A stretch of 64,000 bases of DNA from Bacillota bacterium (GTDB taxonomy: Bacteria; Bacillota; SHA-98; Ch115; JABLXJ01): NCBI GenBank assembly GCA_013178125.1, contig JABLXJ010000006.1, positions 156,631-220,630 of the forward strand, read 5' to 3'. A model generated the notes under the pieces. The model was given only the letters and a program-made list of their open reading frames with translations. It was not told where the DNA came from and searched no databases. Shown piece by piece: positions 29,296-64,000 of this stretch. The translations under genes were made by a program, and so were the position numbers. Every line of letters begins with the position of its first letter. Position 1 is the first letter of the stretch.

Positions 29296-29421
29296 ATCAT
29301 ATAAGGTTGACCCCTGTCGCCTGAATTCCCACCCTCGTCTCCAGCTCTCCGAGCCCCCGTGGCCCCGTAACCCATAACCGGTGAATTGGTCTAGACCTAT
29401 AAGAAGAAACACTAAACTGGT

Positions 29422-29841: not shown

Positions 29842-29947
29842 CATAATATCGACTCCTGTCTTGCGAGGTGATATCAATTCCCGGTGCCCAATTCCTGGCG
29901 CCGGGGTCTCCACAAAAACCAGGGGCCCCGGCGCCAGGCATCCATTT

Positions 29948-31624: not shown

Positions 31625-31812
31625 TATTTCGCCCCTTTCGGTCTTTTAAGCTTTTTGGTTATTGTCGCGAGATCTCTACATTCTACATTCTACAGTCAAC
31701 ATGTTACAGTCACGCGAGATTCTACAATGATTATCCGGGCCTGCTCCGGCCGCCCCGGCCTTGCTCTGGCCTGTCCAATCTCCTCTTGCATACCCCTATT
31801 TACCCCTGCCTA

Positions 31813-34094: not shown

Positions 34095-34425
34095 GAACCA
34101 ACCATTCCCTCCTATTCTTTCCTGCAAGGGAACATATAAGATCATTTTCAGGGCCCATCTCAGGGACTGGATCACTGGATAAAGCATGGCAAGGTGGAAC
34201 ACGGCGAAGCTGGAGAGGTCCTTGAGAATAATCACCCTCTATAGTGGTACATTCGAGCTCCAATGTCAAGAGCCCGGAGAGCTATCCTCGCCTCCCTCGC
34301 CTCTCGCTAGGCCTCACCCAATGCCCGTCCCATGCCCGCCTCATCATGGCCCCACTACATGGCCACGCTCCTCCCCGGCCCCGATCCTATCCCGGCGCCA
34401 CCTGCCCGGTGCCCGGCTCCACCCG

Positions 34426-35103
34426 CTATGGCTCGCGCGCGCCTTCCCAGGGGGCCCCGGGGGCTTTGCACAGGTAATAAGCCAGATGCATGAGCTCCAG
34501 GCTGAGATCCGAATTGTGAAGGCGGACGTGGGGCGGGACTGTGAGCTTCGCCGGAGCGAAATTAAGGATCCCATCTATCCCGGCACCCACGCATGCATCG
34601 ACGACCTCCTGGGCGCTCGAGGCCGGCACGGCCACCACGGCCATTCGCACCCCGAGCTCCGAGACCTTCTCTTTCAATTGCCGCATGGGCGAGACCTCTA
34701 TTCCGTCTATTCCCAGTCCAATCTTCGCCGGGTTCTTGTCAAATACCGCCACGATGTCGAGGTGGTAATCCGCCTCGGCCTGGCGACGCCCTATGAGATA
34801 CCTGGCCAGGGCAATCCCGAGGCTGCCGGCCCCGATAATCGCCACCTTGATCACACAATCCAGGTTGAGCACCCTGCGCAGCTCCTGCCTCAAGACATCG
34901 ATCTCGTATCCAACCCCCTGTTTGCCGAACTCCCCAAACAGGCTGAGGTCCTTCCGGACCTGGTCAGATGTGACACCAGCGGCGTCGCCGAGCTCATATG
35001 AGGAAATCGACGGCCCATGCTTATCTACATCAATAGTCTCCAGGACCCGCAAATAAAGGGGCAATCTCCTGATAACCACGTCAGGAGCTTTCCGGGCTCT
35101 CAT
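34426..35103 (-). CDS. rex: Redox-sensing transcriptional repressor Rex
   Basis: Contains PDVVIRRLPLYLRVL wHTH and a VAIIGAGSLGIALA Rossmann fold. Confidence 0.85.
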   Translation of the reverse strand: MRARKAPDVVIRRLPLYLRVLETIDVDKHGPSISSYELGDAAGVTSDQVRKDLSLFGEFGKQGVGYEIDVLRQELRRVLNLDCVIKVAIIGAGSLGIALARYLIGRRQAEADYHLDIVAVFDKNPAKIGLGIDGIEVSPMRQLKEKVSELGVRMAVVAVPASSAQEVVDACVGAGIDGILNFAPAKLTVPPHVRLHNSDLSLELMHLAYYLCKAPGAPWEGAREP

Positions 35104-37058: not shown

Positions 37059-37077
37059 AGACTATACAGCATCCTCA

Positions 37078-38796
37078 TCAATACTTGCCCCGACCGATAT
37101 AATGAGTGTGCAATAGATGATGCGACCGCTCGCCGAGAGGCTTCTCGAGAAACTCGGCGTAGATCTGCTTGATCGCCGGGTTCTCATGGGACTTCCGGTA
37201 AGGCATGTCCTTATCTGCTAGATAGAGAGCCTGGCCACGCTTCCCCTTTATCTCCATAGTGCTCGGTATGGGCTGCCCGCCGCCGCCAACACACCCTCCC
37301 GGGCAGCACATTATCTCGATGAAGTGGTAATTCGCCTCCCCGGCGCGGAGCATCTCGAGTATCTTCTTTGCATTGCCCAGACCGTGGGCCACGGCCACCC
37401 TCACCGTCAGGCCATTGAGGTTGACCTCGGCTTCCTTTATCCCATCGAGGCCGCGAACTCCTTCGAAGTCCAGGTTGCCGAGCTCTGTCCCGGTCGCGAC
37501 CTCATATACCGTCCGGAGCGCTGCCTCCATTACCCCGCCGGTGGCCCCGAAGATCGCCGCGGCACCGGTGGAGATGCCCATCGGGTCATCGTGCTCCTCC
37601 TCGGGAAGGTCCTCGAACCTGATACCAGCCTCCCTCAACATCCTGCCGAGCTCACGGCTGGTGAGCACGGCATCGACATCCTGGTACCCGCTCGACCTCA
37701 TCTCCGGCCTCTCCGCCTCAAATTTCTTAGCCGTGCACGGCATGAGCGAGACGCTGAAAATATTGGCCGGATCGATGCCAGCCTTCTGGGCGTAATAGGT
37801 CTTCACCAGCGCACCGAACATCTGCTGGGGAGACTTACATGTCGATATATGAGGCAAGAGGTCGGGATAGTAGTGCTCCCCGAATTTGATCCACCCCGGG
37901 CTGCAGGATGTGATCATCGGGAGAACCCCACCTTCTTTTATTCGCTTTAAAAGCTCATTTCCCTCCTCTATTATGGTGAGGTCGGCAGTGAAATCCGTAT
38001 CCATTACCTTATCAAACCCGAGCCTCCTGAGAGCCGCCACGAGCTTCCCCGTGACGAGCGTCCCGGGCTCCATGCCCATCTCCTCACCGATAGTCGCCCT
38101 GATAGCGGGCGCGGTTTGCACAACAACGTGCTTCGCCGGGTCGGCGAGCGCCTCCCACACCCGCTCGGTATCGTCGCGTTCACTTATAGCCCCGACGGGG
38201 CACGCCAGGATGCATTGCCCGCACAGGGCGCACGCAACATCCCCCAGGTCATCCCCGAAGACGGGCGTTACCACTGTATCAGCACCCCTATTAGCAGGGA
38301 ACAGCACACCGACGCCCTGAACATTCTGGCACGTTTCCACGCACCTCCGGCAGAGAATGCATTTATCAGGCTCCCTGACTATAGAGGGCGTCGAATGATC
38401 CTCAGGCAGGCCGCGCAGCCTCCTTTCAAAGCGGACCTCCCGTATACCGAGCCTCTCCGCGAGCGTCTGCAGCTCGCAGTTCTGATTTCTTATACACTGC
38501 AAGCAATCCTGGGGGTGCCTGGCGAGGAGAAGCTCCACCGCCATTCTCCGGGCCTGGCGGACTGCCTGCGTATTCGTCCGGACGACCATACCATCGCTCG
38601 CAGGATATGCGCATGCGGGCTGCAGCAGCTTTTGCCCCTCTATCTCAACCACGCAAACGCGGCATACAGCCCTCGCCTCAAGGTCAGGGTGGTAACAGAG
38701 CGTGGGAATATCTATGCCTATCCTCTTTGCAGCGTCGAGGATGGTGATTCCCTTCTCAACCTGCACTCTGCGGCCATCTATTGTCAACGTGACCAT
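37078..38796 (-). CDS. hydA: [FeFe]-hydrogenase catalytic subunit (HydA/HndD-type, N-terminal 2Fe-2S and 4Fe-4S domains)
   Basis: H-cluster motifs TSCSPGW, MPCTAKKFE and EIMCCPGGCVGGGGQP. Confidence 0.9.
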   Translation of the reverse strand: MVTLTIDGRRVQVEKGITILDAAKRIGIDIPTLCYHPDLEARAVCRVCVVEIEGQKLLQPACAYPASDGMVVRTNTQAVRQARRMAVELLLARHPQDCLQCIRNQNCELQTLAERLGIREVRFERRLRGLPEDHSTPSIVREPDKCILCRRCVETCQNVQGVGVLFPANRGADTVVTPVFGDDLGDVACALCGQCILACPVGAISERDDTERVWEALADPAKHVVVQTAPAIRATIGEEMGMEPGTLVTGKLVAALRRLGFDKVMDTDFTADLTIIEEGNELLKRIKEGGVLPMITSCSPGWIKFGEHYYPDLLPHISTCKSPQQMFGALVKTYYAQKAGIDPANIFSVSLMPCTAKKFEAERPEMRSSGYQDVDAVLTSRELGRMLREAGIRFEDLPEEEHDDPMGISTGAAAIFGATGGVMEAALRTVYEVATGTELGNLDFEGVRGLDGIKEAEVNLNGLTVRVAVAHGLGNAKKILEMLRAGEANYHFIEIMCCPGGCVGGGGQPIPSTMEIKGKRGQALYLADKDMPYRKSHENPAIKQIYAEFLEKPLGERSHHLLHTHYIGRGKY

Positions 38797-38930
38797 CGCG
38801 ATATATTCCCTCCTCGTAAATCCACACTCGTGAATCCGCAGATACTAAGGCCTGCAGATACTAAAGCCTGCCAGCAAGACCTCCTGAAAGGCCTGCTAAG
38901 GTCCGCCGGGACCCGCTGAGGCCTGCATGC

Positions 38931-40547
38931 CTAGAGCCCGCATGTCCCCGTGGGGCAGGTCCTGTCAGCGATGTGGGCATCAAACTCATCACGGAAGTAC
39001 TTCAGCATCGTGAGGACCGGCACAGGAGCCGCCTGGCCGAGGCCGCAAAGGCTCGCCCTCTGCATCACCTGGGCGAGCTCCGCCATGAGCTCTATATCCT
39101 GCGCACGCCCCTTGCCGGAGCTCGCCATGTCCATAATCTCATAAAGGCGATCGGTCCCCTCGCGACACGGGGTGCACTTCCCGCATGATTCATGCCGGAA
39201 AAACCTCATGAAGCACCTGGCAATATCCACGATGCAATGCGAGTCGTCCATAATGAGGAGAGCCCCTGAACCCAGGGCCGAGCCTGCCTCGGCCAGCGAG
39301 AAGTAGTCCATCGGGACATCGAGGAGCTCCCTTGGGAGGCAGCCTCCCGACGTGCCGCCCGTCTGGGCCATCTTGAACTCCCTGCCGCCGGGGATGCCGC
39401 CGCCGATTTCATATATTACCTGCCTCAGCGTGATCCCCATCGGGACCTCTATCAGTCCCTTGTTGTTGATATCGCCTGTAAGGGTGAATACCTTGGTCCC
39501 CGGGCATCTCTCGGTTCCGAACCCCCTGAACCACTCGGGCCCGTTCAGGATGATCGGCGAGATGTTGGCAAGGGTCTCGACGTTATTGACAACTGTGGGT
39601 TTGCCCCAGAGGCCATGGGTTCCGGGATATGGGGGCTTTATCCTTGGCTCGCCCCTGTTCCCCTCGATCGATTCGATCAGGGCGGTCTCCTCGCCGCACA
39701 CATATGCGCCCGCTCCCTTGCGGATTTCAATATCGAAGCTGAAGCCCGATCCGAAGATATTCTCCCCGAGAAGGCCCAGACGCCTGGCCTGGTCTATGGC
39801 CTTCTGCATCCTCTCAATCGAGATAGCATACTCACCGCGTATATAAATAAAACCTTTATCCGCACCCACTGCGTAACCGGCAATAGCCATTCCCTCAATG
39901 ATGCTGTGGGGGTCCCCCTCGAGGATCAGCCTGTCCTTGAACGTGCCGGGCTCCCCCTCATCGGCGTTACATAAAATGTATTTTTGGTCGGCGTCTGCCT
40001 TGGCCGTGAACTCCCACTTGAGGCCCGTGGGGAACGCAGCCCCTCCCCGCCCGACAAGCCCGGATCTCTTGATCTCGTCTATCACCTCGCCGGGCTTCAT
40101 CTGGCTCACACACCTGCCCAGGGCGGCATAGCCATCCCGACCGATATACTCCTCCACAGACTCAGGGTCCATAACTCCGCAATTCCGGAGGACGATTCTC
40201 TTCTGGGGGCCGAGGTAAGTCGGAGCCTCGTACTTCACAACCTCCTTCTCTACCGGACGCTCCCTTGCGACAAGCCGGTCAACGATCCTGCCCTTCAAGA
40301 GGTGCTCCTCGACGATCAGGGGCACATCCTCGACCTTCACAGGACCGTAGAATGTCCCCTCCGGGTATACGACGATAACTGGTCCGAGGTCGCAGGGGCC
40401 CAGGCAACCAGTCTCGACAACCTTGATCTCCCGCGAGAGGCCCTGGCGATGGATTTCATTAATGAGCGCATCCCTGACAGCCTTGCAGCCGCCGAGGACG
40501 CAGGGGGTGCCCCCGCAAACCAGCACGTGCGAACGATAAAACTCCAC
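38931..40547 (-). CDS. NADH-binding flavoprotein subunit of bifurcating hydrogenase (NuoF-like, HndC/HydB)
   Basis: N-terminal thioredoxin-like 2Fe-2S domain, GRGGAAFPTG FMN site, ESCGKCTPCREG motif and a C-terminal ferredoxin domain. Confidence 0.85.
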   Translation of the reverse strand: MEFYRSHVLVCGGTPCVLGGCKAVRDALINEIHRQGLSREIKVVETGCLGPCDLGPVIVVYPEGTFYGPVKVEDVPLIVEEHLLKGRIVDRLVARERPVEKEVVKYEAPTYLGPQKRIVLRNCGVMDPESVEEYIGRDGYAALGRCVSQMKPGEVIDEIKRSGLVGRGGAAFPTGLKWEFTAKADADQKYILCNADEGEPGTFKDRLILEGDPHSIIEGMAIAGYAVGADKGFIYIRGEYAISIERMQKAIDQARRLGLLGENIFGSGFSFDIEIRKGAGAYVCGEETALIESIEGNRGEPRIKPPYPGTHGLWGKPTVVNNVETLANISPIILNGPEWFRGFGTERCPGTKVFTLTGDINNKGLIEVPMGITLRQVIYEIGGGIPGGREFKMAQTGGTSGGCLPRELLDVPMDYFSLAEAGSALGSGALLIMDDSHCIVDIARCFMRFFRHESCGKCTPCREGTDRLYEIMDMASSGKGRAQDIELMAELAQVMQRASLCGLGQAAPVPVLTMLKYFRDEFDAHIADRTCPTGTCGL

Positions 40548-52547: not shown

Positions 52548-54635
52548 CTACTTTTCCTTCTCTCTCTCTTTGGCCGCGGCCTCGATGATCTGCTGACTTA
52601 TTTGGGCCGGGACCTCTTCATAATGGTCGAAATTCATGCTGTAATGTCCCCTGCCTCCTGTAATGGATCGCAGGTCAATGGCATACTTGAACATCTCGGC
52701 CATCGGGACTAGGGCCTTAATGACCTGGTTCTTGCCGCTCGGCTCCATCCCGAGGATCTTGCCGCGCCTCTTGTTCAGGTCGCCCATGATATCGCCCATA
52801 TAGGCCTCAGGGATAACCACCTCGACATTCATTATGGGCTCGAGCAGCACAGGCTTGGCATCCATGGCCCCCTTCTTGAGAGCCATGGAGGCGGCTATCT
52901 TGAATGCCATCTCGGACGAGTCCACGGGGTGGTATGAACCATCATAGAGCGTGACCTTTATATCAACCAGCGGGTAGCCAGCCAGCACGCCCTCCACCAG
53001 GGCTTCCCGTACGCCCTTCTCGACGGCGGGGATATACTGGCGCGGAACAGCGCCGCCGAAGATCTTGTCAACGAACTCAAAACTGCCGCCCGGGGGCAGG
53101 GGCTCGAGCTCGAGCCACACATGACCGTACTGGCCGCGGCCCCCTGTCTGCTTCTTGTGCTTGCCCTCGACCTTGACAGTGCCCCGGATGGTCTCCCTGT
53201 AAGGCACCCTGGGGGTATCAAGAGTCACATCGACTCCGAACTTCCGCTTCAGCCTGTCGGCTATAACCTCCAGGTGCTGCTCGCCCATGCCTGATATGAT
53301 CGTCTGCCCGGTCTCGACGTCCTTCTTGACTTTAAAGGTCGGGTCTTCCTCTGCTAACCTGGCAAGCCCCGCACCAATCTTGTCCTCATCCCCCTTGGAT
53401 TTAGGCTCGACTGCCATCGAGAGCGCAGGTTCGGGGAAGGCGATGCCATTGAAGATAATTGGATGCTCTTTATCACAGAGCGTCTCCCCGGTTGATGTCT
53501 CCTGGAGCTTCGCCACGGCCGCTACATCGCCGGCTATGACCTCCTGCGTCGCCTCCTGCTGCTTCCCTCGCATGAAGAAAACCTGACCGACCCGTTCCTG
53601 TTTATCCTTATTGGCGTTATAAACCTGGGAATCTGAATGTAGCATACCCGAGTAAACCTTGAAGAATGTCAGCTTGCCCACGTATGGGTCGGCCATGGTC
53701 TTGAAAACAAAGGCCGAGAACGGTTGATCTGCCTTCAACTCCCGCGTCTCATTCTGCTTGGAAGCAGGGTTTACCCCTTCGGCGCCGCCCATTTCACCGG
53801 GGAACGGCAGATAGTTGACGAGCGCATCCATTAGAGGCTGAATCCCGATGTTCTTGAGGCTGGAGCCGCAGAAAATGGGAATGGCCTTGCCGGCCTTGAC
53901 CCCTTCTGCTAGTCCGCGCCTGATCTCATCCTCAGTTAGCTCCTGGCCATCAAGGTATTTCTCGATTAGTTCATCATCATTTTCGGCCGCGACCTCCAGC
54001 ATCATGTCCCGGTAGGTCTTCGCCCTCTCTTGTAGGTCCGCAGGGATGTCAGCCGTCCTGGTCTTCCGCCCTCCGGCATCCGGGAGGATGGCTTTCATGC
54101 TGACCAAGTCGACAACCCCTGCAAATGAATCCTGGGACCCGATGGGGACTTGAACAGGCACGACATGCTGGCCGAACTGGCCCCGGAGAGCGTCGACGAC
54201 CTTGTAGAAATCCGCATTCTCCCGGTCCATCTTATTTATAAAGGCGATGCGCGGCAGGCCTCTCTCGTCCGCAAAGCCCCATACATTCTCCGAACCAACC
54301 TCGACGCCGGATACCGCGCAAAAAACCATGACAGCTGCGTCCGCCACCCTGAGTCCGCTCTTCACTTCCCCGACAAAATCCGCAAAACCGGGTGTATCAA
54401 TTATATTGATCTTACTCCCGGCCCACTCGCACGGCGCAATTGCCGTATTAATCGATATCTTCCGTTTAATCTCTTCGGGGTCATAGTCCGTCGTAGCCGT
54501 GCCCTCATCAACCTTGCCCAGTCGATCGATGGCCCCTGCGTCATACAAAATCGCCTCAGCGAGGCTCGTCTTGCCCGCCCCGCCATGGGCAACCAAGGCT
54601 ACGTTCCTCAGTTGCTCTGTCTTGTATTTCCCCAA
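52548..54635 (-). CDS. Elongation factor G paralog (EF-G2-like translational GTPase)
   Basis: AHGGAGKTS G1, DTPGFADF G3, and all five EF-G domains present. It is not in an rpsL-rpsG-fusA-tuf context, so it is likely a second copy. Confidence 0.85.
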   Translation of the reverse strand: MGKYKTEQLRNVALVAHGGAGKTSLAEAILYDAGAIDRLGKVDEGTATTDYDPEEIKRKISINTAIAPCEWAGSKINIIDTPGFADFVGEVKSGLRVADAAVMVFCAVSGVEVGSENVWGFADERGLPRIAFINKMDRENADFYKVVDALRGQFGQHVVPVQVPIGSQDSFAGVVDLVSMKAILPDAGGRKTRTADIPADLQERAKTYRDMMLEVAAENDDELIEKYLDGQELTEDEIRRGLAEGVKAGKAIPIFCGSSLKNIGIQPLMDALVNYLPFPGEMGGAEGVNPASKQNETRELKADQPFSAFVFKTMADPYVGKLTFFKVYSGMLHSDSQVYNANKDKQERVGQVFFMRGKQQEATQEVIAGDVAAVAKLQETSTGETLCDKEHPIIFNGIAFPEPALSMAVEPKSKGDEDKIGAGLARLAEEDPTFKVKKDVETGQTIISGMGEQHLEVIADRLKRKFGVDVTLDTPRVPYRETIRGTVKVEGKHKKQTGGRGQYGHVWLELEPLPPGGSFEFVDKIFGGAVPRQYIPAVEKGVREALVEGVLAGYPLVDIKVTLYDGSYHPVDSSEMAFKIAASMALKKGAMDAKPVLLEPIMNVEVVIPEAYMGDIMGDLNKRRGKILGMEPSGKNQVIKALVPMAEMFKYAIDLRSITGGRGHYSMNFDHYEEVPAQISQQIIEAAAKEREKEK

Positions 54636-54797
54636 GCAAATCTCCTCCTTGAACCGTTCTACAGGGATAATTCTCGCTTATATTATTTTACACTTGCCAA
54701 TGCCTGAGTTCAAGGGCATTAGGGCATTTTGTCTGCCCTTGTTTGCCTTATACAATGCTAATGCCCGGGGAACGCGTTCAAGGATATCCCGGCCGGC

Positions 54798-56165
54798 TCA
54801 GTCGAACTCCTGCGTAAAAATTATTCCGAAGGTCGTAACCGTTTCGTCTTCGTCACCCGACGGGTCGTAAAGGTAGACCTTCCTCGAATGCCCGATCTCG
54901 ACGGCGATCCTCCTGATATCGTCCAGGTCCTCCGAGAGCTTGATCTCAAGCATTCGCTTATCATAGTTCCCGTCCATTAAATCCTCATCCATATACCCCT
55001 TATACTGCGATCCAGCCTTAATGCTCAGGATGGGGACCCCGGTGCCCTGCCCCAATGGGAACTCCACCCTAGCAGAAAGAAGCCTGGTGCCCTTCCCGGA
55101 CCCGGGCGAGGAAGGGAACACTACATGACCTATCTCGCCGATAACCTCAAATGCGACGTTATCCAGCCGTTTCCCGCTCACCTCAACCCTGGCGCTCCCA
55201 GAAAGGGAATCCTTATCTGCAGACAATACAAAGGCTTTATATGCCCTCTCGAGAACCCCTCTGATCGCGAGCCTGGCCGCGGGCCTGTATTCCCCTTCTA
55301 TCGAAATCAGATTGCGAATATAGGTCTTATCAGGGGCATTGACATAGTTCTTGAATAGCCGTTCTATGGCTATCCCGCCACCAATGCGTCTCCTGTAGGG
55401 ACTCCTAACGCTGAATGTGAGGAGCTCGGTGGCTGAATCATTCACCGGGTTTTCATGGAACCCCTTCTCCACCCGGGAGAAATCCCCCGCCAGCCTGAAT
55501 ATATTGGGGGGTCGGACATTCAAGCCGAAGGCTATCTCTCTCGTAGTATAATCCCTGTACGACTTGCTATCATACAGGCTGTCACCAGACTTGAGGGTCG
55601 TTTCGATGGAAAAACTCCTCGGGACCGGCTCCCATTTTATCTTAAGCCTCCGGGCGTTCTGGAGGTTTAGATAGCCGACCTCACCCTCATCTGCTTCAAT
55701 GATGCTTTTCACCACATACCCGGCCTCCAGGGAGAATCGCTTTGCAGGCTTATACTTGAAATCAAGCTCCGCAGCCGTATCAGCCGAGAAACCATGCAGC
55801 TCCGGGGCTTTAACGCTCAAGGCGGCACCCGCATCCACTATCCTGTTCCCGCGGAGGTCCACCCCGACAGTGAACCCGGATTCGTCCTTTAGTTCCCCCG
55901 TATAGCCGCCGCACCCGCCCGTGAGTTTTCCGGACAGCCCCATGCTGAATCTCCCGTGCACGTCCAGCTGCAAGGCGTCCCCGCGGGGAGCCACAATCCT
56001 GCTGATATCGGCAGGTTCGCCGGCACCTTCCAGCGACATTGCGATTGCTGCCTGATGCCCGACGATCACGCTCGCTATTGTTAGAATCCACATCCATATA
56101 GGGATGAAGAAGCGAATCCGAAAAGTCCTTCGGTACCCCAGGATGAACCCCCCTCCCGGGCGCAT
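54798..56165 (-). CDS. Hypothetical secreted beta-rich protein; possible outer-membrane beta-barrel
   Basis: Signal-peptide-like MWILTIASVIVGHQAAIA, then ~410 aa of alternating hydrophobic/hydrophilic short strands ending ...TFGIIFTQEFD. No recognisable family. Confidence 0.4.
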   Translation of the reverse strand: MRPGGGFILGYRRTFRIRFFIPIWMWILTIASVIVGHQAAIAMSLEGAGEPADISRIVAPRGDALQLDVHGRFSMGLSGKLTGGCGGYTGELKDESGFTVGVDLRGNRIVDAGAALSVKAPELHGFSADTAAELDFKYKPAKRFSLEAGYVVKSIIEADEGEVGYLNLQNARRLKIKWEPVPRSFSIETTLKSGDSLYDSKSYRDYTTREIAFGLNVRPPNIFRLAGDFSRVEKGFHENPVNDSATELLTFSVRSPYRRRIGGGIAIERLFKNYVNAPDKTYIRNLISIEGEYRPAARLAIRGVLERAYKAFVLSADKDSLSGSARVEVSGKRLDNVAFEVIGEIGHVVFPSSPGSGKGTRLLSARVEFPLGQGTGVPILSIKAGSQYKGYMDEDLMDGNYDKRMLEIKLSEDLDDIRRIAVEIGHSRKVYLYDPSGDEDETVTTFGIIFTQEFD

Positions 56166-56340
56166 TCATGGCCCGATAGTCCGCTGGCTCGATACGCCAG
56201 TGCTGCAATCCCAGGATACCATCATATTCCATAAATGTCAATAAAACTTTCGGGTGATTTCGATGAATCCCGATTTTGATCGCGATTGATTTCGACACGA
56301 CTGTATGACGCTGCAAGTTAGCCTAAATCAGACAATGTTG

Positions 56341-56598
56341 TCACTTGACGAGCCCGAGCTCTCTGGCCTTTCTAAAGACCTCGCACTCCTCGCAGCGCCC
56401 GTCGCAATCCATGCAGTCCTCCTCCACCTCCCAGCAATTAAGCCCACGCGCGTGAATTTCGCAATTTAAATACAAGCTTGCGGGGCAGCCACGGATCGCG
56501 CGACAATCCTTGAAGCCCCCACCCGGGAGTTCCCGGCCCGACAAAGCCTCCTGCAACACAACCGCCTCCGCATCCTCGGGATTCTTATGACTTCGCAT
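56341..56598 (-). CDS. Small Cys-rich protein (85 aa, 10 Cys) of unknown function
   Basis: CRAIRGCPASLYLNCEIHARGLNCWEVEEDCMDCDGRCEECEV, which looks like a metal- or Fe-S-binding mini-protein. Confidence 0.4.
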   Translation of the reverse strand: MRSHKNPEDAEAVVLQEALSGRELPGGGFKDCRAIRGCPASLYLNCEIHARGLNCWEVEEDCMDCDGRCEECEVFRKARELGLVK

Positions 56599-56631
56599 GA
56601 CTTCTTGTGATTCTTCTTATGGCTCTATGCA

Positions 56632-57495
56632 TCATTCTGTAGTTTTCTCGTTGCCGCGCTGCGCCTTCTTCGTCGACGTGGAGCCCAGGCTCCCGGCCCG
56701 CTCGGCCGCGGCGACCACAGCGTCCATCAAAGCCCCCCTCACCCCGCCCCTTTCCATGGCGTGGAGGCCTGCTATGGTGGTCCCTCCGGGCGAAGTCACC
56801 ATGTCCCTCAGCTTCGCCGGATGCTCGCCTGTCTCGAGGACCATCTTCGCCGCGCCTAGGACCGTCTGGGCGGCAAGGATGAGGGCCTGGTCCTTGCGAA
56901 AGCCGATTCGCACCCCCCCATCGGCCAGGGCCTCGATAACCGTGTAGACGAATCCGGGCCCGCTGCCGCTCAAGGCCGTTACGCTGTTCATCAATGACTC
57001 ATCAATCTCTACGACCACAGCCATCTTCCTGAGAAGCTCGAGGAGCCAGCCGGCATCCGCGGCATCTATGTGCTTCCCGAGGCAAAAGGCGATCGCCCCG
57101 GCGCCGAGCGAGCACGGCGTATTGGGCATGATGCGCATCACCTTTACCTCTTCGCCGAGCATGGTCTCCACATAATTCAACTCGATGCCCGCGGCCAACG
57201 TCACGATTATGCTCCCGGGCCTAATCATCCCGCGCAGCTCAAGGAGCACACCGGATATAACCTGCGGCTTGACCGCTAGGAATAAGGCATCAGCCTGCCG
57301 GGCAACCTCTATGTTGCTGGGGACGGCGGTTACGCCCAGGTCGTTACTGATGGATGCCAGCCTCTCGCAGCTCGCATCGCTCGCGACTATGTTGGACGGA
57401 TCTACGTACGCGAAACCAATCAAGCCCTTCATCAAGGCCTCGGCTATCGTGCCTGCCCCAATAAAACCTATCGTATGTGACAATACTAGACTCAC
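56632..57495 (-). CDS. proC: Pyrroline-5-carboxylate reductase
   Basis: IGFIGAGTIAEAL Rossmann fold and a P5CR C-terminal dimerisation domain. Confidence 0.85.
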   Translation of the reverse strand: MSLVLSHTIGFIGAGTIAEALMKGLIGFAYVDPSNIVASDASCERLASISNDLGVTAVPSNIEVARQADALFLAVKPQVISGVLLELRGMIRPGSIIVTLAAGIELNYVETMLGEEVKVMRIMPNTPCSLGAGAIAFCLGKHIDAADAGWLLELLRKMAVVVEIDESLMNSVTALSGSGPGFVYTVIEALADGGVRIGFRKDQALILAAQTVLGAAKMVLETGEHPAKLRDMVTSPGGTTIAGLHAMERGGVRGALMDAVVAAAERAGSLGSTSTKKAQRGNEKTTE

Positions 57496-57919
57496 CTCTT
57501 CCCGGGTTTGCCTGAATCCTGCAGGCGAAATATGCTTTGCAATCTATATCTTCTATAGTTGGCAAGTATAGTTGGCAAGAATTAGTACGGCAGGGATTCC
57601 TGAATTTTATATTTCCTTCGCCACCCTGGTCAATAATCCTTCAGTTTCCTCTTAGCTCAGTATGAAAAATTCACCAATTTCCCCAGGTAGCAGTTAGGTA
57701 GCTGCCATACCCCATAGGCTTCATTTAGAGGCAATTCCGGCGGAGCCAACTCCAGTCCACGGGTATAACAAACGGGTATAACAAACAGATGGCAGGAAAT
57801 CCACCCAGTGTCATTGAAATAAGCAATGGGGCCTCTCCTGTATAAATCACCGTCAAACCCCTAATATGTTAACCCTTGAACGATAGAGATGAACAGAAGC
57901 GCTAGAAAGGTGAGATGGC

Positions 57920-58504
57920 TTGAGAATCATTGTAGGCTTGAGCGGCGCGACCGGCGCAATTTACGGCATAACCCTCCTGAAGACCTTGAGGGATCTCGAG
58001 ATCGAAACACACCTGGTGCTCACCCCGTGGGCCGAGGCCACCATAAAGGCGGAGACCGACTACTCCCCTGAGGAGGTAATGAGCCTTGGCACCCACACCC
58101 ATGCCCATGACGACCTCGCCGCCCCGATTGCGAGCGGGACCTGCCCCACAGATGCCATGGTGATCGCCCCCTGCAGCATGAAGACCCTGGCGGCGATCGC
58201 AAGTGGCTATTCCGATAATCTCCTCACGCGGGCGGCCGACGTGATGATCAAGGAGCGCCGTCCCCTGGTGCTCGTAGCCCGGGAGACCCCCCTTTCCCCG
58301 ATCCATCTCGAGAACATGCTCAAGCTCGCTCAGGCAGGCGCCGTCATCCTGCCCCCGGTCCCATCCTTCTACCAGCGGCCATCAACAGTAGAGGATATCG
58401 TCAAGGGGACGGTCGCGAAGATTCTCGACCAGCTCCGGATCAAGCATAACCTAGTGCCCCCATGGGGGCAGGAAACAAAAAAAGGAATTATGAGGAGATC
58501 GTAG
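57920..58504 (+). CDS. ubiX: Flavin prenyltransferase UbiX
   Basis: RIIVGLSGATGAIYG... flavoprotein fold; TTG start with an AAGGTGAG RBS. Confidence 0.85.
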   Translation: MRIIVGLSGATGAIYGITLLKTLRDLEIETHLVLTPWAEATIKAETDYSPEEVMSLGTHTHAHDDLAAPIASGTCPTDAMVIAPCSMKTLAAIASGYSDNLLTRAADVMIKERRPLVLVARETPLSPIHLENMLKLAQAGAVILPPVPSFYQRPSTVEDIVKGTVAKILDQLRIKHNLVPPWGQETKKGIMRRS

Positions 58505-58572
58505 GAGGAATATTCCTAAGGAGGGTATACTATATGGAATTTATGAAGAATTATTAAGTAAGGAATTATAAT

Positions 58573-58590
58573 GGGCTCCCGGAGGAGCCC
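58573..58590 (-). terminator. Possible terminator hairpin GGGCTCC-CGGA-GGAGCCC between convergent ubiX and ndh2
   Basis: 7-bp perfect stem, followed on the minus strand by ATTATAATT. Confidence 0.3.
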
Positions 58591-58705
58591 CAAAACTCGT
58601 CCCGCCCCACAAACGGAACATTATTCAAATCCAACGAGAGTATGGTGCATGGCACCTATGAAGGTATAGCGCCGATGAAAGGCCAGACACAAAGGCTGGA
58701 CACCG

Positions 58706-60463
58706 CTAGACATCGGCGGCCTTCTTCGCCTCAGGCGCTGACCCTCTCCGGCACACCAGAGCCTGGAGGTAAGCCATTACGTAAGGCATTACATAGTAAT
58801 CGAGCCCAAAAGCCCTGCCCGCCCCTCCCAGCATCGGTATCGAAGCTACAAGGAACCATATGTTTCCCGTGCCTGAAAGCATGAAATTGATATTCATGAA
58901 TATGGAGCCGAGCCCCGCCAGAACCGTAAACAGGCCGAATATGAATGCGAGCCCGAGCACCAGCTCCCCAAGGGTGATCATCCTCTGGAAAAGCAATGCA
59001 TGCGGAAATACCACATTCTCCATAAATGCCGCATACCAGGCTGGCGTGTTAGGTCCCATCGGCACCAGCGACGATCCTGAAACCAGCTTATCGCCGGATA
59101 CCAGGAACCCGGCCTGCACCTTTTCAATCCCGGACGCCAGCCACTGGTAGCCAAGAAAGAGCCTGAGTATCACCAGCCAAAACATGCTAGCCTTCACGTT
59201 CAAATGCTTGTACAAACCCGATAAACCTCCCCTCTCATTGAGAAATTCCTCTTTCAGGTACCTTGATGTGAGCCACAGCTTCCCAACGCCAAAGAGATAA
59301 TGCAGATTGACAAGATGCTTCATGGCCATGGCAGGAAAGCCCCAGAGCGGGACCCCGGCGATATCAGCCACAGCGTAATGGCTTCCGATCGATACCATGA
59401 CCCCATGAAGCTTCGGTTTGAATTTCCCCTGCGGCTTGCCATGTATTGCAGATGCAATAGCCTCCGCTACGAAATCGGCACCCTGCAGCCCCGCCTCAAC
59501 CAACGCAGGCAACTCGCCATCATCGTTGGCAAACAGGGCATTATCCCCTATCGCGTAGACATCCGGGCACCTCTCCGTCTGCATGCGCTCGTTTACCATG
59601 ATGCGACCCCGGCGACCACATGGGAATCCCAAATCCCTCACATCCCCCCTGGTCTGGACACCGCCGGTCCATATCAGGGTGCGGGTTTTCAGGATTGTGC
59701 CGGATTTCAAGGCTATATGATCCTCACCAACTTCGGTTATAGGCGAATTCGTAAACACCATGATCCCCTTACGCTTCATGAACGCCATGGCTCTCTCCCT
59801 GAGGCTCGGCCTCAGGTTAGGAAGGATGGTTGGCAGCGCCTCGATCAAAATCACATGGACTTCGTGCGGGGATATCTCATGCTCGCGGCACAGATCGGGG
59901 ACCCATTCAACCAGCTCACCGACCATCTCGACACCGGTAAACCCCCCGCCGCCCACCACGAAGGTGAGGATTTCCTGGCGCTTCACTGGATCAGACTCAG
60001 ACCGGGCCTGCCTGAACATCTCACTCACCCGGCGCTTGATCCTGAGCGCGTCGTCAAGCGACCACAGCGTAAATGCATTTTCCTGCATACCGGGTATGCC
60101 GTAATACGCCGGCTCGCTCCCGCAGGCGAGGATCGCATAATCGTAGTGATATTCGGCGCTGGCGGACGAAAGAACGCGCTTCTCCGGGTCGATCTTGGTG
60201 ATTTTGTCGTTCACTACCTTGACGCTCGTTCCTGAGAAAACGCGTTCAAGGGGTATCTCGACGGCTTCAGGCCTGATTCTATTGCCGGCTACCTCATGGA
60301 GGTCGGTCAAGAGTACGTGGTTCGGACCGTCATTTATAAGTATTATACTGGCATCCTTTCCTCCAACAAGCCTGTCAAGCTTCTGAGCAACGTGAACTCC
60401 CGCATAGCCACCTCCCACTATTACTATTTCCTTCTTAGGCTGCACATCCGGTTCCCTCCCCAA
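58706..60463 (-). CDS. Type II NADH dehydrogenase (NDH-2) fused to a C-terminal DoxX-like multi-TM domain
   Basis: Two Rossmann motifs (IVIVGGGYAGV, FVVGGGGFTGVE), then ~170 aa with four TM helices (DoxX/DoxD-like). The architecture resembles the EET-specific Ndh2 of Listeria. Confidence 0.75.
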   Translation of the reverse strand: MGREPDVQPKKEIVIVGGGYAGVHVAQKLDRLVGGKDASIILINDGPNHVLLTDLHEVAGNRIRPEAVEIPLERVFSGTSVKVVNDKITKIDPEKRVLSSASAEYHYDYAILACGSEPAYYGIPGMQENAFTLWSLDDALRIKRRVSEMFRQARSESDPVKRQEILTFVVGGGGFTGVEMVGELVEWVPDLCREHEISPHEVHVILIEALPTILPNLRPSLRERAMAFMKRKGIMVFTNSPITEVGEDHIALKSGTILKTRTLIWTGGVQTRGDVRDLGFPCGRRGRIMVNERMQTERCPDVYAIGDNALFANDDGELPALVEAGLQGADFVAEAIASAIHGKPQGKFKPKLHGVMVSIGSHYAVADIAGVPLWGFPAMAMKHLVNLHYLFGVGKLWLTSRYLKEEFLNERGGLSGLYKHLNVKASMFWLVILRLFLGYQWLASGIEKVQAGFLVSGDKLVSGSSLVPMGPNTPAWYAAFMENVVFPHALLFQRMITLGELVLGLAFIFGLFTVLAGLGSIFMNINFMLSGTGNIWFLVASIPMLGGAGRAFGLDYYVMPYVMAYLQALVCRRGSAPEAKKAADV

Positions 60464-60811
60464 TCAAAGAAACTGGTTCACAAAGAAATTGATCCACAAA
60501 AGACACTATACCACTTTGAATACATAATTGACAACACTATATTGCTCACCATTGCGTATTATGCAGGCCGTTAACCATCCCGGCGAGCTACAGGCGCGAA
60601 GCAAATAGGCAAATGAGCAGTACTAGATTCTGGCATAATCCCGGGATGCAATTTTGCCGGGACAAACCCCGGTCAAACCCTATTGCATTTATCGGGTTTA
60701 TACTATAATATCTTTTTGGGTGGCCACCTAATTTCTACATAAACAACCCAAACTAAATCGCCAGGCTGCTAAATCAAGCAGGCAAGATTAAAAAAGGAGT
60801 TGACGTAGCAA

Positions 60812-61501
60812 GTGAAAACCAAAAGCCTTGCGCTGATTGCCTTGCTTTGCCTGACGGCGCTCATCGCCAGCGCCATACCTGCCCTGCCGGCGAGCCCTCG
60901 TTACCGCGATGGGTCGTTTGTTGGCGTCGTCAAGGATGCAAAACGCGGGGACACCGTCGTCGAAGTGGTCATTAAGGGCGGCAAGATAGCCGAGGTCGAT
61001 GTCGTCATGCCCACTGAGGACGAGGTCAAGAAGGAAAACTATCCTCCAGCGCTTGAAGCGCTCAAGAGCATCCCAAAACAGATCGTTGCAAAGCAATCAA
61101 CCGACGTCGATGTGGTAACAAAGGCGACAGGGAGCTCCAAAAAGTATATCGATGCGGTCAAGATGGCGCTCGCGAATGCAGAGCCCAGGACGGGCAAGCT
61201 CCCCGCGGGTGTAAAATGGCATGATGGCACCTACGCCGGCCTCGTCAGGGATCCCAAACATGGCGACTGCGTGGTCGAGGTTGTGATCAAGGGCGGGAAG
61301 ATGACGGAAGTCAACGTGATCGCGCCAACGGCCGAATACATGAAGAATTATAACTATGAACCTGGCAAGGAGGCCTACAGGGAAATCCCGAAGAGGATCC
61401 TGACTGCCCAATCCCCCGATGTCGACGTCTATACCAAGGCGACGGGGAGCAGCAAGAAGTATATGGATGCCGTCCGGCATGCGCTCGAGCAGGCCGAATA
61501 G
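60812..61501 (+). CDS. Secreted (lipo)protein with two tandem FMN_bind domains, PplA-like
   Basis: Signal peptide, then two repeats of ...VVEVVIKGGK..EV.V......E.........P...E....I.........VDV.TKATGSSKKY.DAV..AL... The TGSS sites are plausible ApbE flavinylation targets. Confidence 0.75.
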   Translation: MKTKSLALIALLCLTALIASAIPALPASPRYRDGSFVGVVKDAKRGDTVVEVVIKGGKIAEVDVVMPTEDEVKKENYPPALEALKSIPKQIVAKQSTDVDVVTKATGSSKKYIDAVKMALANAEPRTGKLPAGVKWHDGTYAGLVRDPKHGDCVVEVVIKGGKMTEVNVIAPTAEYMKNYNYEPGKEAYREIPKRILTAQSPDVDVYTKATGSSKKYMDAVRHALEQAE

Positions 61502-61710
61502 GATAGGGAGGAGTGACAGGGCCAAGTCCACACCACAGCAGTCCACAGCGTGGGACATATAGCGTGGGAAGGAGAGGAGATTTGCGGGAAGTCCCAGCCT
61601 CACACGAGGCGCCTGGGACTTCTCCGTGCTTATTCTAGTCCGCGTGGGTAATTCACGCGGCTGAATCCTGGACTGAATCCCGTTCTAATCCAAGTCGGAT
61701 TTGATCGGAT

Positions 61711-62898
61711 TTGGTCGTATTCTATTCTGGATTCGGAGGTCAGGCCGATTTGAAGGAAGGATTTGCCCGATTGAAGACGAAGGATAACGGGAGGAAGAGG
61801 CTTCATCTCAATACATCCGGCTTCTATGTAGTGGCCGCCTTATTCATCATCCTAGCTCTTGCAGTCTCCATCCGCCTGGGCCTTTGCCCGGGACTTGCCA
61901 CGGGCTTTAGCCCGGCCCCGGCCGAGAACGGCGATGGAGATGGACCGGTAAGTGGGACCAGATTCATGATGGGAACTGTCGTTACGATGAAGGCCTACGG
62001 TCCCGGGGCAGCAGGGGCGGTGGAGCAGGGTTTCGCACGCGTCAGAGAAATCGAGAATAAGATAAGCGTCAATATACAGGCCAGCGAGGTATCAAAGGTG
62101 AACAGCGAGGCCGGCCTGCGCCCGGTGCGCGTTGGCAGGGACGCTTTCGATATAGCGCGGAGCGCTCTGGAATATGCTGCCCTGACATCAGGTAAATTCG
62201 ACCCCGCTATCGGTCCCATTGTCAAACTCTGGGGGATCGGTACAGATCATGCCAGGGTCCCGGACCCAGATGTGCTTGCGGCGAAGCTCTCCCTTGTAGA
62301 TTACAGAGATGTGATCCTGGATGGTAATCGACACTCAATCATGCTTAAACGAAAAGGGATGGCCCTCGATTTTGGGGGCATCGCCAAGGGGTATGCCGCC
62401 GACGAGGTCGTCCGCATCTTCAAGGAAAGGGGCGTAAAAAGCGCCTATGTGGACCTGGGCGGCAATGTATTCGTCGTCGGGTCGCGTCCCGATGGCAGGC
62501 CGTGGCGGATTGCCATCCAGGACCCCAGGAAGGAGCGGGGCTTCTATGTCGGAATCATCGAGGCCAAGGACAAGAGCATAGTCACATCCGGCGATTACGA
62601 GCGTTACTTCGAGGCGAATGGCAAGCGGTATCATCATATCTTCGACCCGGCCACGGGCCGGCCGGCGGATTCGGGCATCATGAGCGCCACCATCATATCA
62701 GACCGCTCAATCGACGGCGATGCGCTGTCTACGAGCGTATTCATCCTGGGGCCCGAAAAGGGCCTCGAGCTCGTCAACAGATTGCCGGGGATCGAGGCCG
62801 TTATAATCACGACGGACCGGAAGGTTCTTATCTCCAGGGGCCTCGCCGAAAGCGGTGCTTTCACTATAACGAGCAAGGAGTACAGGCTTACACGATGA
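61711..62898 (+). CDS. apbE: ApbE-family FAD:protein FMN transferase
   Basis: RFMMGTVVTMKAY...FDPAIGPIVKLWGIG...DFGGIAKGYAADEV...SGDYER; an N-terminal membrane/signal segment. The true start may be downstream of the track start. Confidence 0.85.
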   Translation: MVVFYSGFGGQADLKEGFARLKTKDNGRKRLHLNTSGFYVVAALFIILALAVSIRLGLCPGLATGFSPAPAENGDGDGPVSGTRFMMGTVVTMKAYGPGAAGAVEQGFARVREIENKISVNIQASEVSKVNSEAGLRPVRVGRDAFDIARSALEYAALTSGKFDPAIGPIVKLWGIGTDHARVPDPDVLAAKLSLVDYRDVILDGNRHSIMLKRKGMALDFGGIAKGYAADEVVRIFKERGVKSAYVDLGGNVFVVGSRPDGRPWRIAIQDPRKERGFYVGIIEAKDKSIVTSGDYERYFEANGKRYHHIFDPATGRPADSGIMSATIISDRSIDGDALSTSVFILGPEKGLELVNRLPGIEAVIITTDRKVLISRGLAESGAFTITSKEYRLTR

Positions 62899-63323
62899 AA
62901 AAGGGAGACGCGCTCCTCCTAATTGCCATATCGGTCACTGTGGCCCTGACCCTTGCCCTGGGTCACATCCTCACCCCCAGGATGGGGGGAAGTGCCGCGT
63001 CCAGGCTGGCCGTTACGATCAAGGTCGATGGCAGGATGTACCGGACCATGCCCCTGGAGCCCGTGGGACATAAGACCTTCAAAATCAGGACGAAGCGCGG
63101 TGGATACGCGCTCCTGGAGATGCGGGATGGAAAGATTCGCATAGCTGAGTCCAACTGCCCCGAACAGGTTTGCGTAAGGACAGGATGGATATCGAGGCCG
63201 GGGCAATCAATAATTTGCGTTCCCAACCGTGTTATGGTATATATAAATGATATGGATGAATCCGACCACGGCCAGGCGGGCCAGGGCAGCAGCGAGGATG
63301 GCGTGGACGTCATAGTCTACTAA
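62895..63323 (+). CDS. NusG domain II (DUF1312)-containing membrane-anchored protein
   Basis: MKKGDALLLIAISVTVALTL...AVTIKVDGRMYRTMPL...EMRDGKIRIAESNCPEQVCVRTGWISRPGQSIICVPNRVMVYI. The ATG overlaps the apbE stop (ATGA). I prefer this start over the longer in-frame track ORF 62502..63323. Confidence 0.75.
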   Translation: MKKGDALLLIAISVTVALTLALGHILTPRMGGSAASRLAVTIKVDGRMYRTMPLEPVGHKTFKIRTKRGGYALLEMRDGKIRIAESNCPEQVCVRTGWISRPGQSIICVPNRVMVYINDMDESDHGQAGQGSSEDGVDVIVY

Positions 63324-63361
63324 ATTGTAGATGATATTCATATAGGTCTGGAGGCTCTAAA

Positions 63362-63967
63362 ATGTCCGGGACATCGAGGCTTGTGCGATGCGGCCTCCTG
63401 GTCGCATTCAGCCTGGTTCTATATGTTATCGAGGGACTCATACCCGTCCCCTTCATCGTCCCCGGCGCCAAGCTGGGGCTGGCCAATATCATCACCGTAG
63501 TGGCGATCGCTCTGCTGGGGCCAAGGGACGCCTTTATCATTGTTACGGTGCGTACCTTTCTCGCATCCCTTCTAACCGGCAACCTGACCAGCTTCTGGTT
63601 CAGCCTTTCAGGGGCTATCCTGAGCACCTCTGTCATGTCTCTGGCCTATACCCGTTTCGGGGAGGCATTCAGCATTGCCGGGATAAGCATCCTCGGAGGA
63701 ATCTTCCATAATATCGGCCAGCTCTTCGTCGCAAGCCTTGTCGTTGGCACATATGGAATCTATTCCTATTTGCCGCTCCTGCTGGTTGCCGGCACCTGCA
63801 CAGGCTACTTTGTCGGCCTCGCGGCCAGCTTCATCATCCGAACGATGCAGGTCAACCCGTTGTTCCGCCTTCATATGCAGGAGAGCTACCAGGCCGGCGG
63901 CCGGGGAGAAAACAGCGCCGCCCGCAACGCCGCCCACCAGGCCACGGCAGGGCAGGTCGCGAAGTGA
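63362..63967 (+). CDS. Gx-transporter / heptaprenyl-diphosphate-synthase-component-I-like (PF07456) membrane protein
   Basis: 201 aa with 5-6 TM helices and the pattern typical of the ECF-S-like Gx transporter family. Confidence 0.7.
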   Translation: MSGTSRLVRCGLLVAFSLVLYVIEGLIPVPFIVPGAKLGLANIITVVAIALLGPRDAFIIVTVRTFLASLLTGNLTSFWFSLSGAILSTSVMSLAYTRFGEAFSIAGISILGGIFHNIGQLFVASLVVGTYGIYSYLPLLLVAGTCTGYFVGLAASFIIRTMQVNPLFRLHMQESYQAGGRGENSAARNAAHQATAGQVAK

Positions 63968-64000
63968 CTCAAACCAGGAAACCAGGGATGAAAAGGGATG

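Follow-up and report, generated by a model that had tools for sequence, protein, structure and literature searches.

Does the genome of an uncultured clostridial anaerobe encode a flavin-based route for carrying electrons out of the cytosol, and if so, which quinone would feed it? The question is raised by a group of genes at the end of the 64,000-nucleotide stretch analysed here (the window), which forms part of contig JABLXJ010000006.1 of a Bacillota bacterium (assembly GCA_013178125.1). The original prediction, made from the DNA letters, had recognised a type II NADH dehydrogenase (NDH-2) fused to a DoxX-like domain, a secreted protein with two FMN_bind domains, the flavin transferase ApbE, a NusG_II protein and a PF07456 membrane protein, and had likened the group to the extracellular electron transfer (EET) locus of Listeria. 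Our analysis indicates that the locus is probably a clostridial version of the Gram-positive flavin-based EET gene cluster (also FLEET), orthologous to the Listeria/Enterococcus system.

Gene content and likeness to the Listeria locus

The EET locus of Listeria monocytogenes was reportedly described by Light et al. in 2018. Its genes are arranged in the order dmkB-eetB-eetA-ndh2 / pplA-fmnB-dmkA-fmnA (PMC8238504, PMC9973259). The reference used for comparison is locus L006 of Listeria cossartiae, retrieved using the aligned 7esa sequence, which encodes a polyprenyl_synt protein (DmkB), PF07456 (EetB), PF07009 (EetA), Ndh2 of 632 amino acids (aa), a PplA with two FMN_bind domains, ApbE (FmnB), a UbiA protein (DmkA) and a CbiQ protein (FmnA). 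At the window locus all open reading frames (ORFs) and domains of the original prediction were confirmed, and each of the five gene products exceeds the Pfam gathering score, against which Pfam calls were judged throughout (Table 1); NCBIfam calls were judged against curated cut-offs. The gene-by-gene comparison with L006 likewise supports the Listeria-like reading, as the window locus and its extension beyond position 64,000 hold five clear homologues and one weak one (PplA) of the eight-gene set. In an operational definition, EET is recognised where a flavinylation-associated cluster includes an NADH dehydrogenase (K03885) that has a transmembrane helix (Meheust et al. 2021, PMC8238504). Judged by NDH-2 homology, a DoxX-like membrane domain and adjoining ApbE and FMN_bind genes, the locus falls within this definition.

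The Ndh2 ORF (585 aa) combines Pyr_redox_2 (146 bits) with a tail that matches both DoxD (PF04173, 33.5; cut-off 22.7) and DoxX (PF07681, 28.6; cut-off 23.6). Translation likely starts at position 60445, where a GTG follows the ribosome-binding site GGAGGG; this gives 579 aa and agrees with the gene caller. Judging by sequence, the N-terminal part of about 400 residues is a true NDH-2, with residues 10–399 matching NDH-2 of C. thermarum (4nwz) at an expectation value (E) of 4e-68. The alignment to Listeria Ndh2, which contains Pyr_redox_2 and a weak DoxX match (23.8), spans the membrane domain, with 36% identity over 613 aligned columns (E 2e-129; BLASTP). Among 3,688 homologues at E≤1e-10, the best 120 measure 538–656 aa; one of these is truncated, and the other 119 have at least 572 aa. 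Since the best homologues are long enough to carry the C-terminal extension, the fusion is genuine and not a sequencing or assembly artefact. The quinone-site motif, canonically AQxAxQ, reads VEAGLQ in the window protein (residues about 318–327). V and E in place of AQ, read as VExAxQ, are invariant in 120 of 120 DoxX-fused Ndh2 homologues and also present in Listeria Ndh2, so that this VE signature is best read as a shared derived mark of the DoxX-fused family. It is also a potential sequence marker for EET-type Ndh2.

By eye, four putative hydrophobic helices can be counted in the Ndh2 tail; a simple hydropathy scan with a strict threshold flags residues 490–519 only. The name DoxX/DoxD derives from a subunit of thiosulfate:quinone oxidoreductase, and the domain would be the obvious candidate for holding or channelling quinone. 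If the catalytic core lies in the cytosol, and with positive charge at the C-terminus, the first loop of the domain would point to the outside.

The two FMN_bind stretches of the PplA-like protein follow a hydrophobic signal or anchor helix at residues 6–24 (hydropathy scan). Similarity to Listeria PplA is weak (29% identity, E 5e-7; BLASTP), and the gene lies in the same genomic position. Likeness to PplA is favoured by the two domains, the helix and the position, and weakened by the low similarity, a missing lipobox and a Lys residue in the motif. A PDB search found no solved structure of Listeria PplA; the best solved match of the FMN_bind domain is 8p2b. In an alignment with 8p2b and seven homologues including Listeria PplA, Ala-Thr is invariant at A105-T106 and A210-T211. 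The residues predicted to be flavinylated are Thr106 (61127–61129) and Thr211 (61442–61444), in the motifs D-V-V-T-K-A-T and D-V-Y-T-K-A-T. The flavinylation motif had originally been read as 'TGSS'. This was out of register, as the Thr that opens 'TGSS' is itself the predicted target.

Directly downstream lies the gene for ApbE (PF02424, 316 bits; start called at 61750, 382 aa), whose best PDB match is 7esa (E 1.7e-84, 317 residues aligned), a protein 98–99% identical to Listeria FmnB. The hydropathy scan places an N-terminal transmembrane segment at residues 40–58. The start of eetA overlaps the ApbE stop by 4 bases. Its NusG_II domain (PF07009, 97.9 bits) was matched in the frame of the ORF 62502–63323, of which only the 3' part listed in Table 1 is the actual gene. 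The product consists of one N-terminal transmembrane helix and the NusG_II domain, and shares 34% identity (E 5e-19) with Listeria EetA, also a PF07009 protein. The EetB homologue (PF07456, 163.8 bits) resembles the S-component of energy-coupling factor (ECF) transporters and is 42% identical to Listeria EetB (E 7e-42). PF07456 is the family of eetB, and the Listeria protein is the subunit of a flavin exporter that binds flavin adenine dinucleotide (FAD) and, together with FmnA and EcfA/A', is needed for flavinylation of PplA (Rivera-Lugo et al. 2023, PMC9973259). In the same study, eetB was found in 4,214 genomes, where it adjoins eetA in 3,328, apbE in 2,169 and an ECF-T gene in 291.

The quinone arm and its distribution

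Contig L001 equals window positions 53362–64000 with 0 mismatches in 10,639 bases and runs 8 kb further. The PF07456 gene is followed there by genes for a polyprenyl diphosphate synthase, MqnL, an MqnP-like prenyltransferase and an ATP-binding cassette (ABC) transporter of the NitT/TauT type. The synthase (337 aa, PF00348) is 33% identical to Listeria DmkB (E 1e-61), and its ATG lies at 63988. The reported lack of dmkA and dmkB therefore has to be divided: a dmkB-like gene begins inside the window, whereas a MenA-type DmkA was matched neither in the window nor in L001. The suggestion to look past position 64,000 for dmkA, dmkB and eet genes proved fruitful for the DmkB-like synthase and for MqnL and the MqnP-like enzyme directly behind it, but not for MenA-type DmkA.

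MqnL, a UbiD-family decarboxylase of 485 aa, passes the TIGR03701 equivalog model with 675.6 against a cut-off of 495.9, and its orthologue in lineage L087 scores 650.7. The mqnL gene is overlapped by that for the MqnP-like UbiA-family prenyltransferase (305 aa), which scores 309.5 against 180.8 on the subfamily model TIGR01475. Listeria DmkA is a 1,4-dihydroxy-2-naphthoate prenyltransferase of the MenA type (NF009926, 515; cut-off 316), and the MqnP-like protein has no similarity to it (BLASTP, E 1.0). The UbiX gene, convergent with ndh2, is assigned by subfamily models only (PF02441, 164 bits; TIGR00421, 253.5 against 108.9), and holds the same position in the relative L086. This neighbour had been regarded as an oddity. 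Its proximity is explained by the fact that MqnL is a UbiD-family enzyme with a UbiX-type flavin prenyltransferase as partner; by the roles given in PMC4746308, we infer that UbiX is the MqnM-like partner of MqnL. From comparative genomics, MqnP, MqnL and MqnM have been predicted to turn 1,4-dihydroxy-6-naphthoate into demethylmenaquinone (Ravcheev & Thiele 2016, PMC4746308). The 48 scanned window ORFs gave no MqnA/MqnD-type (VitK2_biosynth) or radical-SAM family match, and a literature search found no paper that joins futalosine with flavin-based EET, Ndh2 or PplA.

How far does this arrangement extend among relatives? In L086 (Ndh2 90% identical) we found UbiX, Ndh2 and the series FMN_bind-ApbE-EetA-EetB-polyprenyl synthase-MqnL-MqnP-ABC transporter between the same flanks. 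L087 (Ndh2 68%) has FMN_bind-ApbE-polyprenyl-MqnL-MqnP-ABC between other flanks. In L094 (PplA-like protein 65%) the order is the same as far as the contig reaches, its last gene being MqnL (77% identical), and L093 (PplA-like protein 71%) ends at the polyprenyl synthase. L002, L003 and L088 (Ndh2 60–63%) contain ndh2 together with apbE-eetA-eetB-polyprenyl, no Mqn genes, and an FMN_bind gene with the canonical motif a few genes away. Thermosediminibacter (L005; Ndh2 51%) has ndh2-polyprenyl-FMN_bind and a UbiA-family gene that is weakly MenA-like. MqnL, MqnP and UbiX occurred in none of about 80 loci from Bacilli, Clostridia and Spirochaetes retrieved via FmnB; therefore, the futalosine-type quinone arm characterises a single small and rare clade, and is seen in four related lineages. 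The surrounding locus type, in contrast, is not unusual for anaerobes, contrary to what had been supposed, since many anaerobic Clostridia have the fusion and the apbE-eetA-eetB-polyprenyl block.

Two further observations concern these loci. The NitT/TauT-type ABC transporter, composed of an NMT1_2/SsuA-like binding protein, an ATPase and a permease, is found at 14066–16828 of L001, 1–2713 of L086 and 1400–4086 of L087, and thus 3' of the MqnP-like gene even where Ndh2 is only 68% identical and the other flanks differ. Its substrate may, speculatively, be a naphthoate head-group precursor or a flavin. In several relatives, a small Zn_ribbon_8 protein is encoded directly beside ndh2.

Electron route and competing explanations

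From the homology and synteny observed for each part of the locus, we infer the activities, the quinone species, flavinylation of the Lys-containing motif, the step from quinol to the PplA-like protein and the terminal acceptor as follows. Ndh2 would oxidise cytosolic NADH, and its NDH-2 core, held at the membrane by the DoxX-like domain, would reduce (demethyl)menaquinone. To supply the latter, the DmkB-like synthase would make the tail, which the MqnP-like enzyme would join to 1,4-dihydroxy-6-naphthoate. MqnL, using prenylated flavin mononucleotide (prenyl-FMN) made by UbiX, would then take off the carboxyl group to give demethylmenaquinone. The quinone class of Listeria EET would thereby be reached via the futalosine route and not through a MenA-type DmkA. 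EetB, possibly with EetA, would deliver FAD to the membrane's outer face, where the membrane-anchored FmnB-type ApbE would use it to place FMN on Thr106 and Thr211 of the PplA-like protein. The flavinylated protein could finally pass electrons from quinol to an acceptor outside the cytosol, which may be ferric iron, a free flavin or a flavinylated reductase. The step from quinol to PplA is putative in Listeria as well, since flavin export is now the role assigned to EetB (PMC9973259).

Several points weigh against such an EET system. The PplA-like protein reaches only 28 on the NCBIfam PplA model (cut-off 325) and has no lipobox. The ApbE flavinylation consensus D-x-x-[S/T]-G-A-[S/T] (PMC12052999) is not fully matched, as D, T, A and T are kept and Gly is replaced by Lys in both domains; in one tested protein, exchange of this Gly for Ala reduced flavinylation (PMC12052999). 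The MqnP-like enzyme stays below the cut-offs of three MqnP models (MqnP_DT, 328 against 430; MqnP_SCO4491, 289 against 420; MqnP_Cj_Hp, 243 against 375). A tblastn search with Listeria FmnA detected no FmnA-like ECF-T gene in the window or L001, which may be no obstacle given that eetB adjoins an ECF-T gene in only 291 of the 4,214 genomes mentioned above (PMC9973259). L087 and L093 are without eetA and eetB, yet they keep ndh2, the Lys-motif FMN_bind gene, ApbE and the polyprenyl synthase. Lastly, an ApbE is also required by the rnf operon 35 kb away, so that ApbE and EetAB are perhaps not dedicated to EET. Independently of this, their absence from L087 and L093 shows the flavin-export pair eetA/eetB to be dispensable in, or moved out of, the cluster in part of the clade.

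The strongest rival takes up the point about rnf. It treats the locus as housekeeping, namely the sole menaquinone-finishing pathway and an ordinary respiratory NDH-2, combined with a general flavinylation service, formed by ApbE and the EetA/EetB flavin exporter, mainly for RnfG and RnfD. In this case a reductase in the membrane or periplasm, and not external acceptors, would be supplied by the two-FMN_bind protein. The complete rnfCDGEAB operon (22683–28104, minus strand) indeed lacks its own apbE, a second ApbE could not be detected in the window and no second MqnP/L/UbiX copy is seen in the data; moreover, eetB adjoins Rnf genes in 572 Clostridia genomes (PMC9973259). On the other hand, Listeria FmnB is the solved structure nearest to the ApbE, and the gene of this ApbE is translationally coupled to eetA and placed directly 3' of the pplA-like gene, divergent from ndh2 as in Listeria. 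Ndh2 has the EET-type VE signature and a membrane domain, unlike ordinary NDH-2, and the FMN_bind-ApbE pair is linked to ndh2 in five lineages. We therefore hold the housekeeping account to be unlikely, if seriously to be reckoned with. It is compatible with an EET function, and the two are not mutually exclusive.

Much less probable is a purely assimilatory iron reductase, an extracytosolic flavoprotein that would reduce Fe(III) or ferric chelates solely for iron uptake. A link with iron uptake exists for many flavinylation clusters (PMC8238504), and in L005 feoAB lies about 6 kb from the ndh2-FMN_bind cluster. However, neither the window lineage nor L086 nor L087 has an iron transporter gene (VIT1, FTR1/P19 or Feo) within 10 kb of the locus. 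The transporter beside it belongs to the NitT/TauT type, and a dedicated NADH dehydrogenase together with quinone synthesis would be a heavy outlay for assimilation alone.

An equally improbable reading denies the two-FMN_bind protein a covalently attached flavin: replacement of Gly by Lys would disable the motif, in line with the sensitivity of the tested substrate to a change to Ala, and the protein would bind flavin non-covalently or have another role. Against this, the motif still has its Asp, its Ala and the target Thr. Both domains keep the Lys across orthologues of 65–89% identity, one member having Gly in the second domain, and all of these genes adjoin apbE; this points to selection rather than decay and argues that the Lys variant is a functional motif. 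The Gly position is also occupied by R, S, D, N or E in relatives. In 149 representative relatives from an exhaustive profile search, 12% of the 629 motif-like sites deviate, with Gly at 556, Arg at 17, Ser at 14, Asp at 9 and Lys at 9. The Lys variant is uncommon, not unique; the notion of a unique K motif was discarded on these counts of Lys and Arg. The window RnfG carries an ordinary T-G-A-T.

A possible counterpart to the substrate Lys is seen in the ApbE stretch IVTSGDYERYFE, where an Asp stands three residues upstream of the catalytic Arg (equivalent to FmnB R262), in TSG-D-YER. This Asp is present in five of five ApbEs of the Lys-motif clade and in at most one of 23 comparison ApbEs, which have Ile, Pro, Thr or Ser at this place; Listeria FmnB has Ile and T. 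pallidum Ftp has Ala. The Asp could be a charge partner for the Lys.

The PplA-like protein is represented by five clusters at 90% identity among 5.8 billion proteins, and a metagenome scan for more members of the K clade yielded three weak, short relatives only. A profile of the clade finds its best matches in proteins with 4–12 FMN_bind domains of this kind. In the exhaustive profile search, the nearest relatives of the domains are giant multi-FMN_bind proteins in which as many as 12 domains were matched, among them P0249 (1853 aa), fused to an RnfD/NqrB-like membrane part, and P0250 (1184 aa), fused to a NapH-like part. In the repeats of the giant proteins, E, N, D, S, R or K occasionally takes the place of the motif Gly.

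Coincidental neighbourhood of unrelated genes can be dismissed as exceedingly improbable: although close relatives may, as a general reservation, owe shared synteny to inheritance, linkage of this gene set persists in Listeria, Enterococcus, Granulicatella, Aerococcus and several lineages of Clostridia, where the flanks differ and the order has been rearranged.

Returning to the EET function, we mention an extended version of it that we consider quite unlikely, ranking below the housekeeping account and above the iron reductase. The locus might be a self-contained EET cassette in a quinone-poor, RNF-based anaerobe, with a private demethylmenaquinone pool made from scavenged naphthoate by MqnP, MqnL and UbiX. 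The NitT/TauT-type importer, 3' of mqnP in three lineages, would bring in the head group, by analogy to the scavenging of 1,4-dihydroxy-2-naphthoate (DHNA) by Lactiplantibacillus. The [S/T]-K-A-T motif and the clade-specific Asp in TSG-D-YER would then suggest a co-evolved pair with altered ApbE specificity.

What does the locus add? Its kind is well described and widespread in Firmicutes. New, in a modest way, are the futalosine-type quinone arm in place of DmkA, the Lys motif, the missing lipobox, the missing FmnA and the conserved neighbouring ABC transporter. A FLEET-type system can now be placed in a deep, uncultured clostridial lineage with hydrogenase and RNF. The quinone arm appears modular, as the MqnP/MqnL/UbiX trio can stand in the place of Listeria DmkA. 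Because the EET quinone of Listeria is demethylmenaquinone, the linkage provides independent genomic support for MqnP/L/M ending at this compound. ApbE is in use as a protein-labelling tool, and the Lys-containing motif offers a natural test case for its sequence tolerance. In addition, the locus represents a compact gene set for MqnP/L/M, the enzymes predicted in PMC4746308. The general picture of flavin-based EET is unchanged; the addition is incremental.

Host, neighbouring features and known systems

The window ValS is 59–63% identical to homologues from Carboxydocella, Calderihabitans, Thermanaeromonas, Thermacetogenium and Phosphitispora. The host is an anaerobe within the Clostridia sensu lato, and probably spore-forming and thermophilic. 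The genes at 28408–40547 on the minus strand, including subunits of a HydABC-type [FeFe]-hydrogenase, suggest an acetogen- or syntroph-like lifestyle. The 'strict-anaerobe background' of the original prediction is reasonable in view of the window gene content, and such backgrounds often hold this kind of locus. In 2019, cad(pplA)-apbE clusters were stated to be restricted to genomes lacking rnf (PMC7074142); the rnf operon 35 kb from the EET locus contradicts this statement.

The ndh2 gene is preceded by a promoter-like site (TTGTCA-18-TG-TATAGT) and, between promoter and ribosome-binding site, by 2.2 copies of the 16-bp direct repeat TTTGTGAACCAGTTTC; L086 keeps the promoter and one copy of the repeat. 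The block 5' of the pplA-like gene comprises TTGCAT ... TATAAT and the perfect palindrome GGTGGCCACC (60719–60728). About 75 bp of it are near-identical in the window and L086, whereas the flanking intergenic DNA differs. These intergenic elements are probably operator sites for a regulator. Control of ndh2 by Rex was considered and rejected, as a scan for TTGTGAAN4TTCACAA with 3 mismatches gave no site in the ndh2/pplA intergenic region. A riboswitch (e.g. for FMN) in the 348-bp leader was likewise discarded, with no Rfam match in the window at the gathering score or in 60300–61000 at E≤1. Between the convergent ubiX and ndh2 lies the G+C-rich hairpin GGGCTCC-TCCG-GGAGCCC, terminator-like by consensus scan alone.

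Two ORFs between an EF-G-like gene (elongation factor G) and proC have no Pfam or NCBIfam match. One (54798–56165, minus strand), of 455 aa or, by the gene caller, 413 aa, begins with a hydrophobic N-terminal segment; the second (56341–56598, minus strand) is Cys-rich and has 85 aa, or 71 aa as called. Their position is kept in L086.

Table 1 Features of the window, in order of position, with strand and basis of assignment
Feature	Position	Strand	Basis
RnfB	22683-23585	-	
RnfA	23693-24298	-	
RnfE	24577-25191	-	
RnfG (T-G-A-T site)	25188-25790	-	
RnfD	25765-26739	-	
RnfC	26755-28104	-	
Formate/nitrite-family channel	28408-29412	-	
Formate-tetrahydrofolate ligase	29948-31624	-	
Nfn-like pair	31813-34235	-	
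Rex homologue	34426-35103	-	
SpoIID	35100-37058	-	
[FeFe]-hydrogenase, HydA-like	37078-38796	-	
[FeFe]-hydrogenase, HydB-like	38931-40547	-	
UbiX-family flavin prenyltransferase	57920-58504	+	PF02441, TIGR00421
Hairpin, terminator-like	58573-58590	.	Consensus scan
Ndh2, NDH-2::DoxX/DoxD fusion	58706-60463	-	Pfam, Listeria Ndh2 alignment
DoxX/DoxD-like membrane domain, residues 425-559	58787-59191	-	Pfam
NDH-2 catalytic core, residues 10-399	59267-60436	-	Alignment to 4nwz
ndh2 promoter-like site and 16-bp direct repeat	60465-60534	-	Candidate operator
Conserved non-coding block 5' of pplA-like gene	60660-60745	+	Comparison with L086
PplA-like two-FMN_bind protein, 229 aa	60812-61501	+	Pfam, BLASTP
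FmnB-type ApbE	61711-62898	+	PF02424, 7esa match
EetA homologue, NusG_II, 142 aa	62895-63323	+	PF07009
EetB homologue	63362-63967	+	PF07456
DmkB-like polyprenyl diphosphate synthase, first 13 bases	63988-64000	+	Continues in L001

How, then, does the locus compare with systems already known? With the Listeria EET locus it shares an Ndh2 that carries the VE signature and, at its C-terminus, the additional DoxX-like membrane domain, a two-FMN_bind gene divergent from ndh2 and directly 5' of an FmnB-type ApbE, and the genes for EetA, EetB and a DmkB-like synthase in the order eetA-eetB-dmkB. It differs in that an MqnP-like prenyltransferase, MqnL and UbiX take the place of the MenA-type DmkA, that an FmnA (ECF-T) gene is missing, and that eetA, eetB and dmkB are on the pplA strand and not behind ndh2. 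Listeria PplA has 299 aa and S-G-A-T, whereas the window protein has 229 aa, T-K-A-T and no lipobox. Unlike Listeria, the host is an anaerobe containing RNF and hydrogenase.

The clusters of the uncultured Bacillota L002, L003 and L088 resemble the window locus in Ndh2 (60–63% identity), the divergent layout and the order apbE-eetA-eetB-polyprenyl synthase. In contrast, their FMN_bind gene lies several genes away and encodes the canonical S-G-A-T, and the cluster has neither MqnL/MqnP/UbiX nor a NitT/TauT-type ABC transporter beside it. The futalosine genes mqnP-mqnL-mqnM (SCO4490-4492 type, PMC4746308) correspond to the window arm in the UbiD-family decarboxylase passing TIGR03701, the overlapping gene for a UbiA-family prenyltransferase and the nearby UbiX. 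Here, however, the genes sit in an EET cluster and not with mqnA-E, and the prenyltransferase remains below the three MqnP cut-offs. Finally, the multi-flavinylated FMN_bind proteins (PDB 8p2b; PMC8238504) contain the domain subtype closest to that of the PplA-like protein, which, unlike them, has only two such domains and is coupled to Ndh2 and quinone synthesis.

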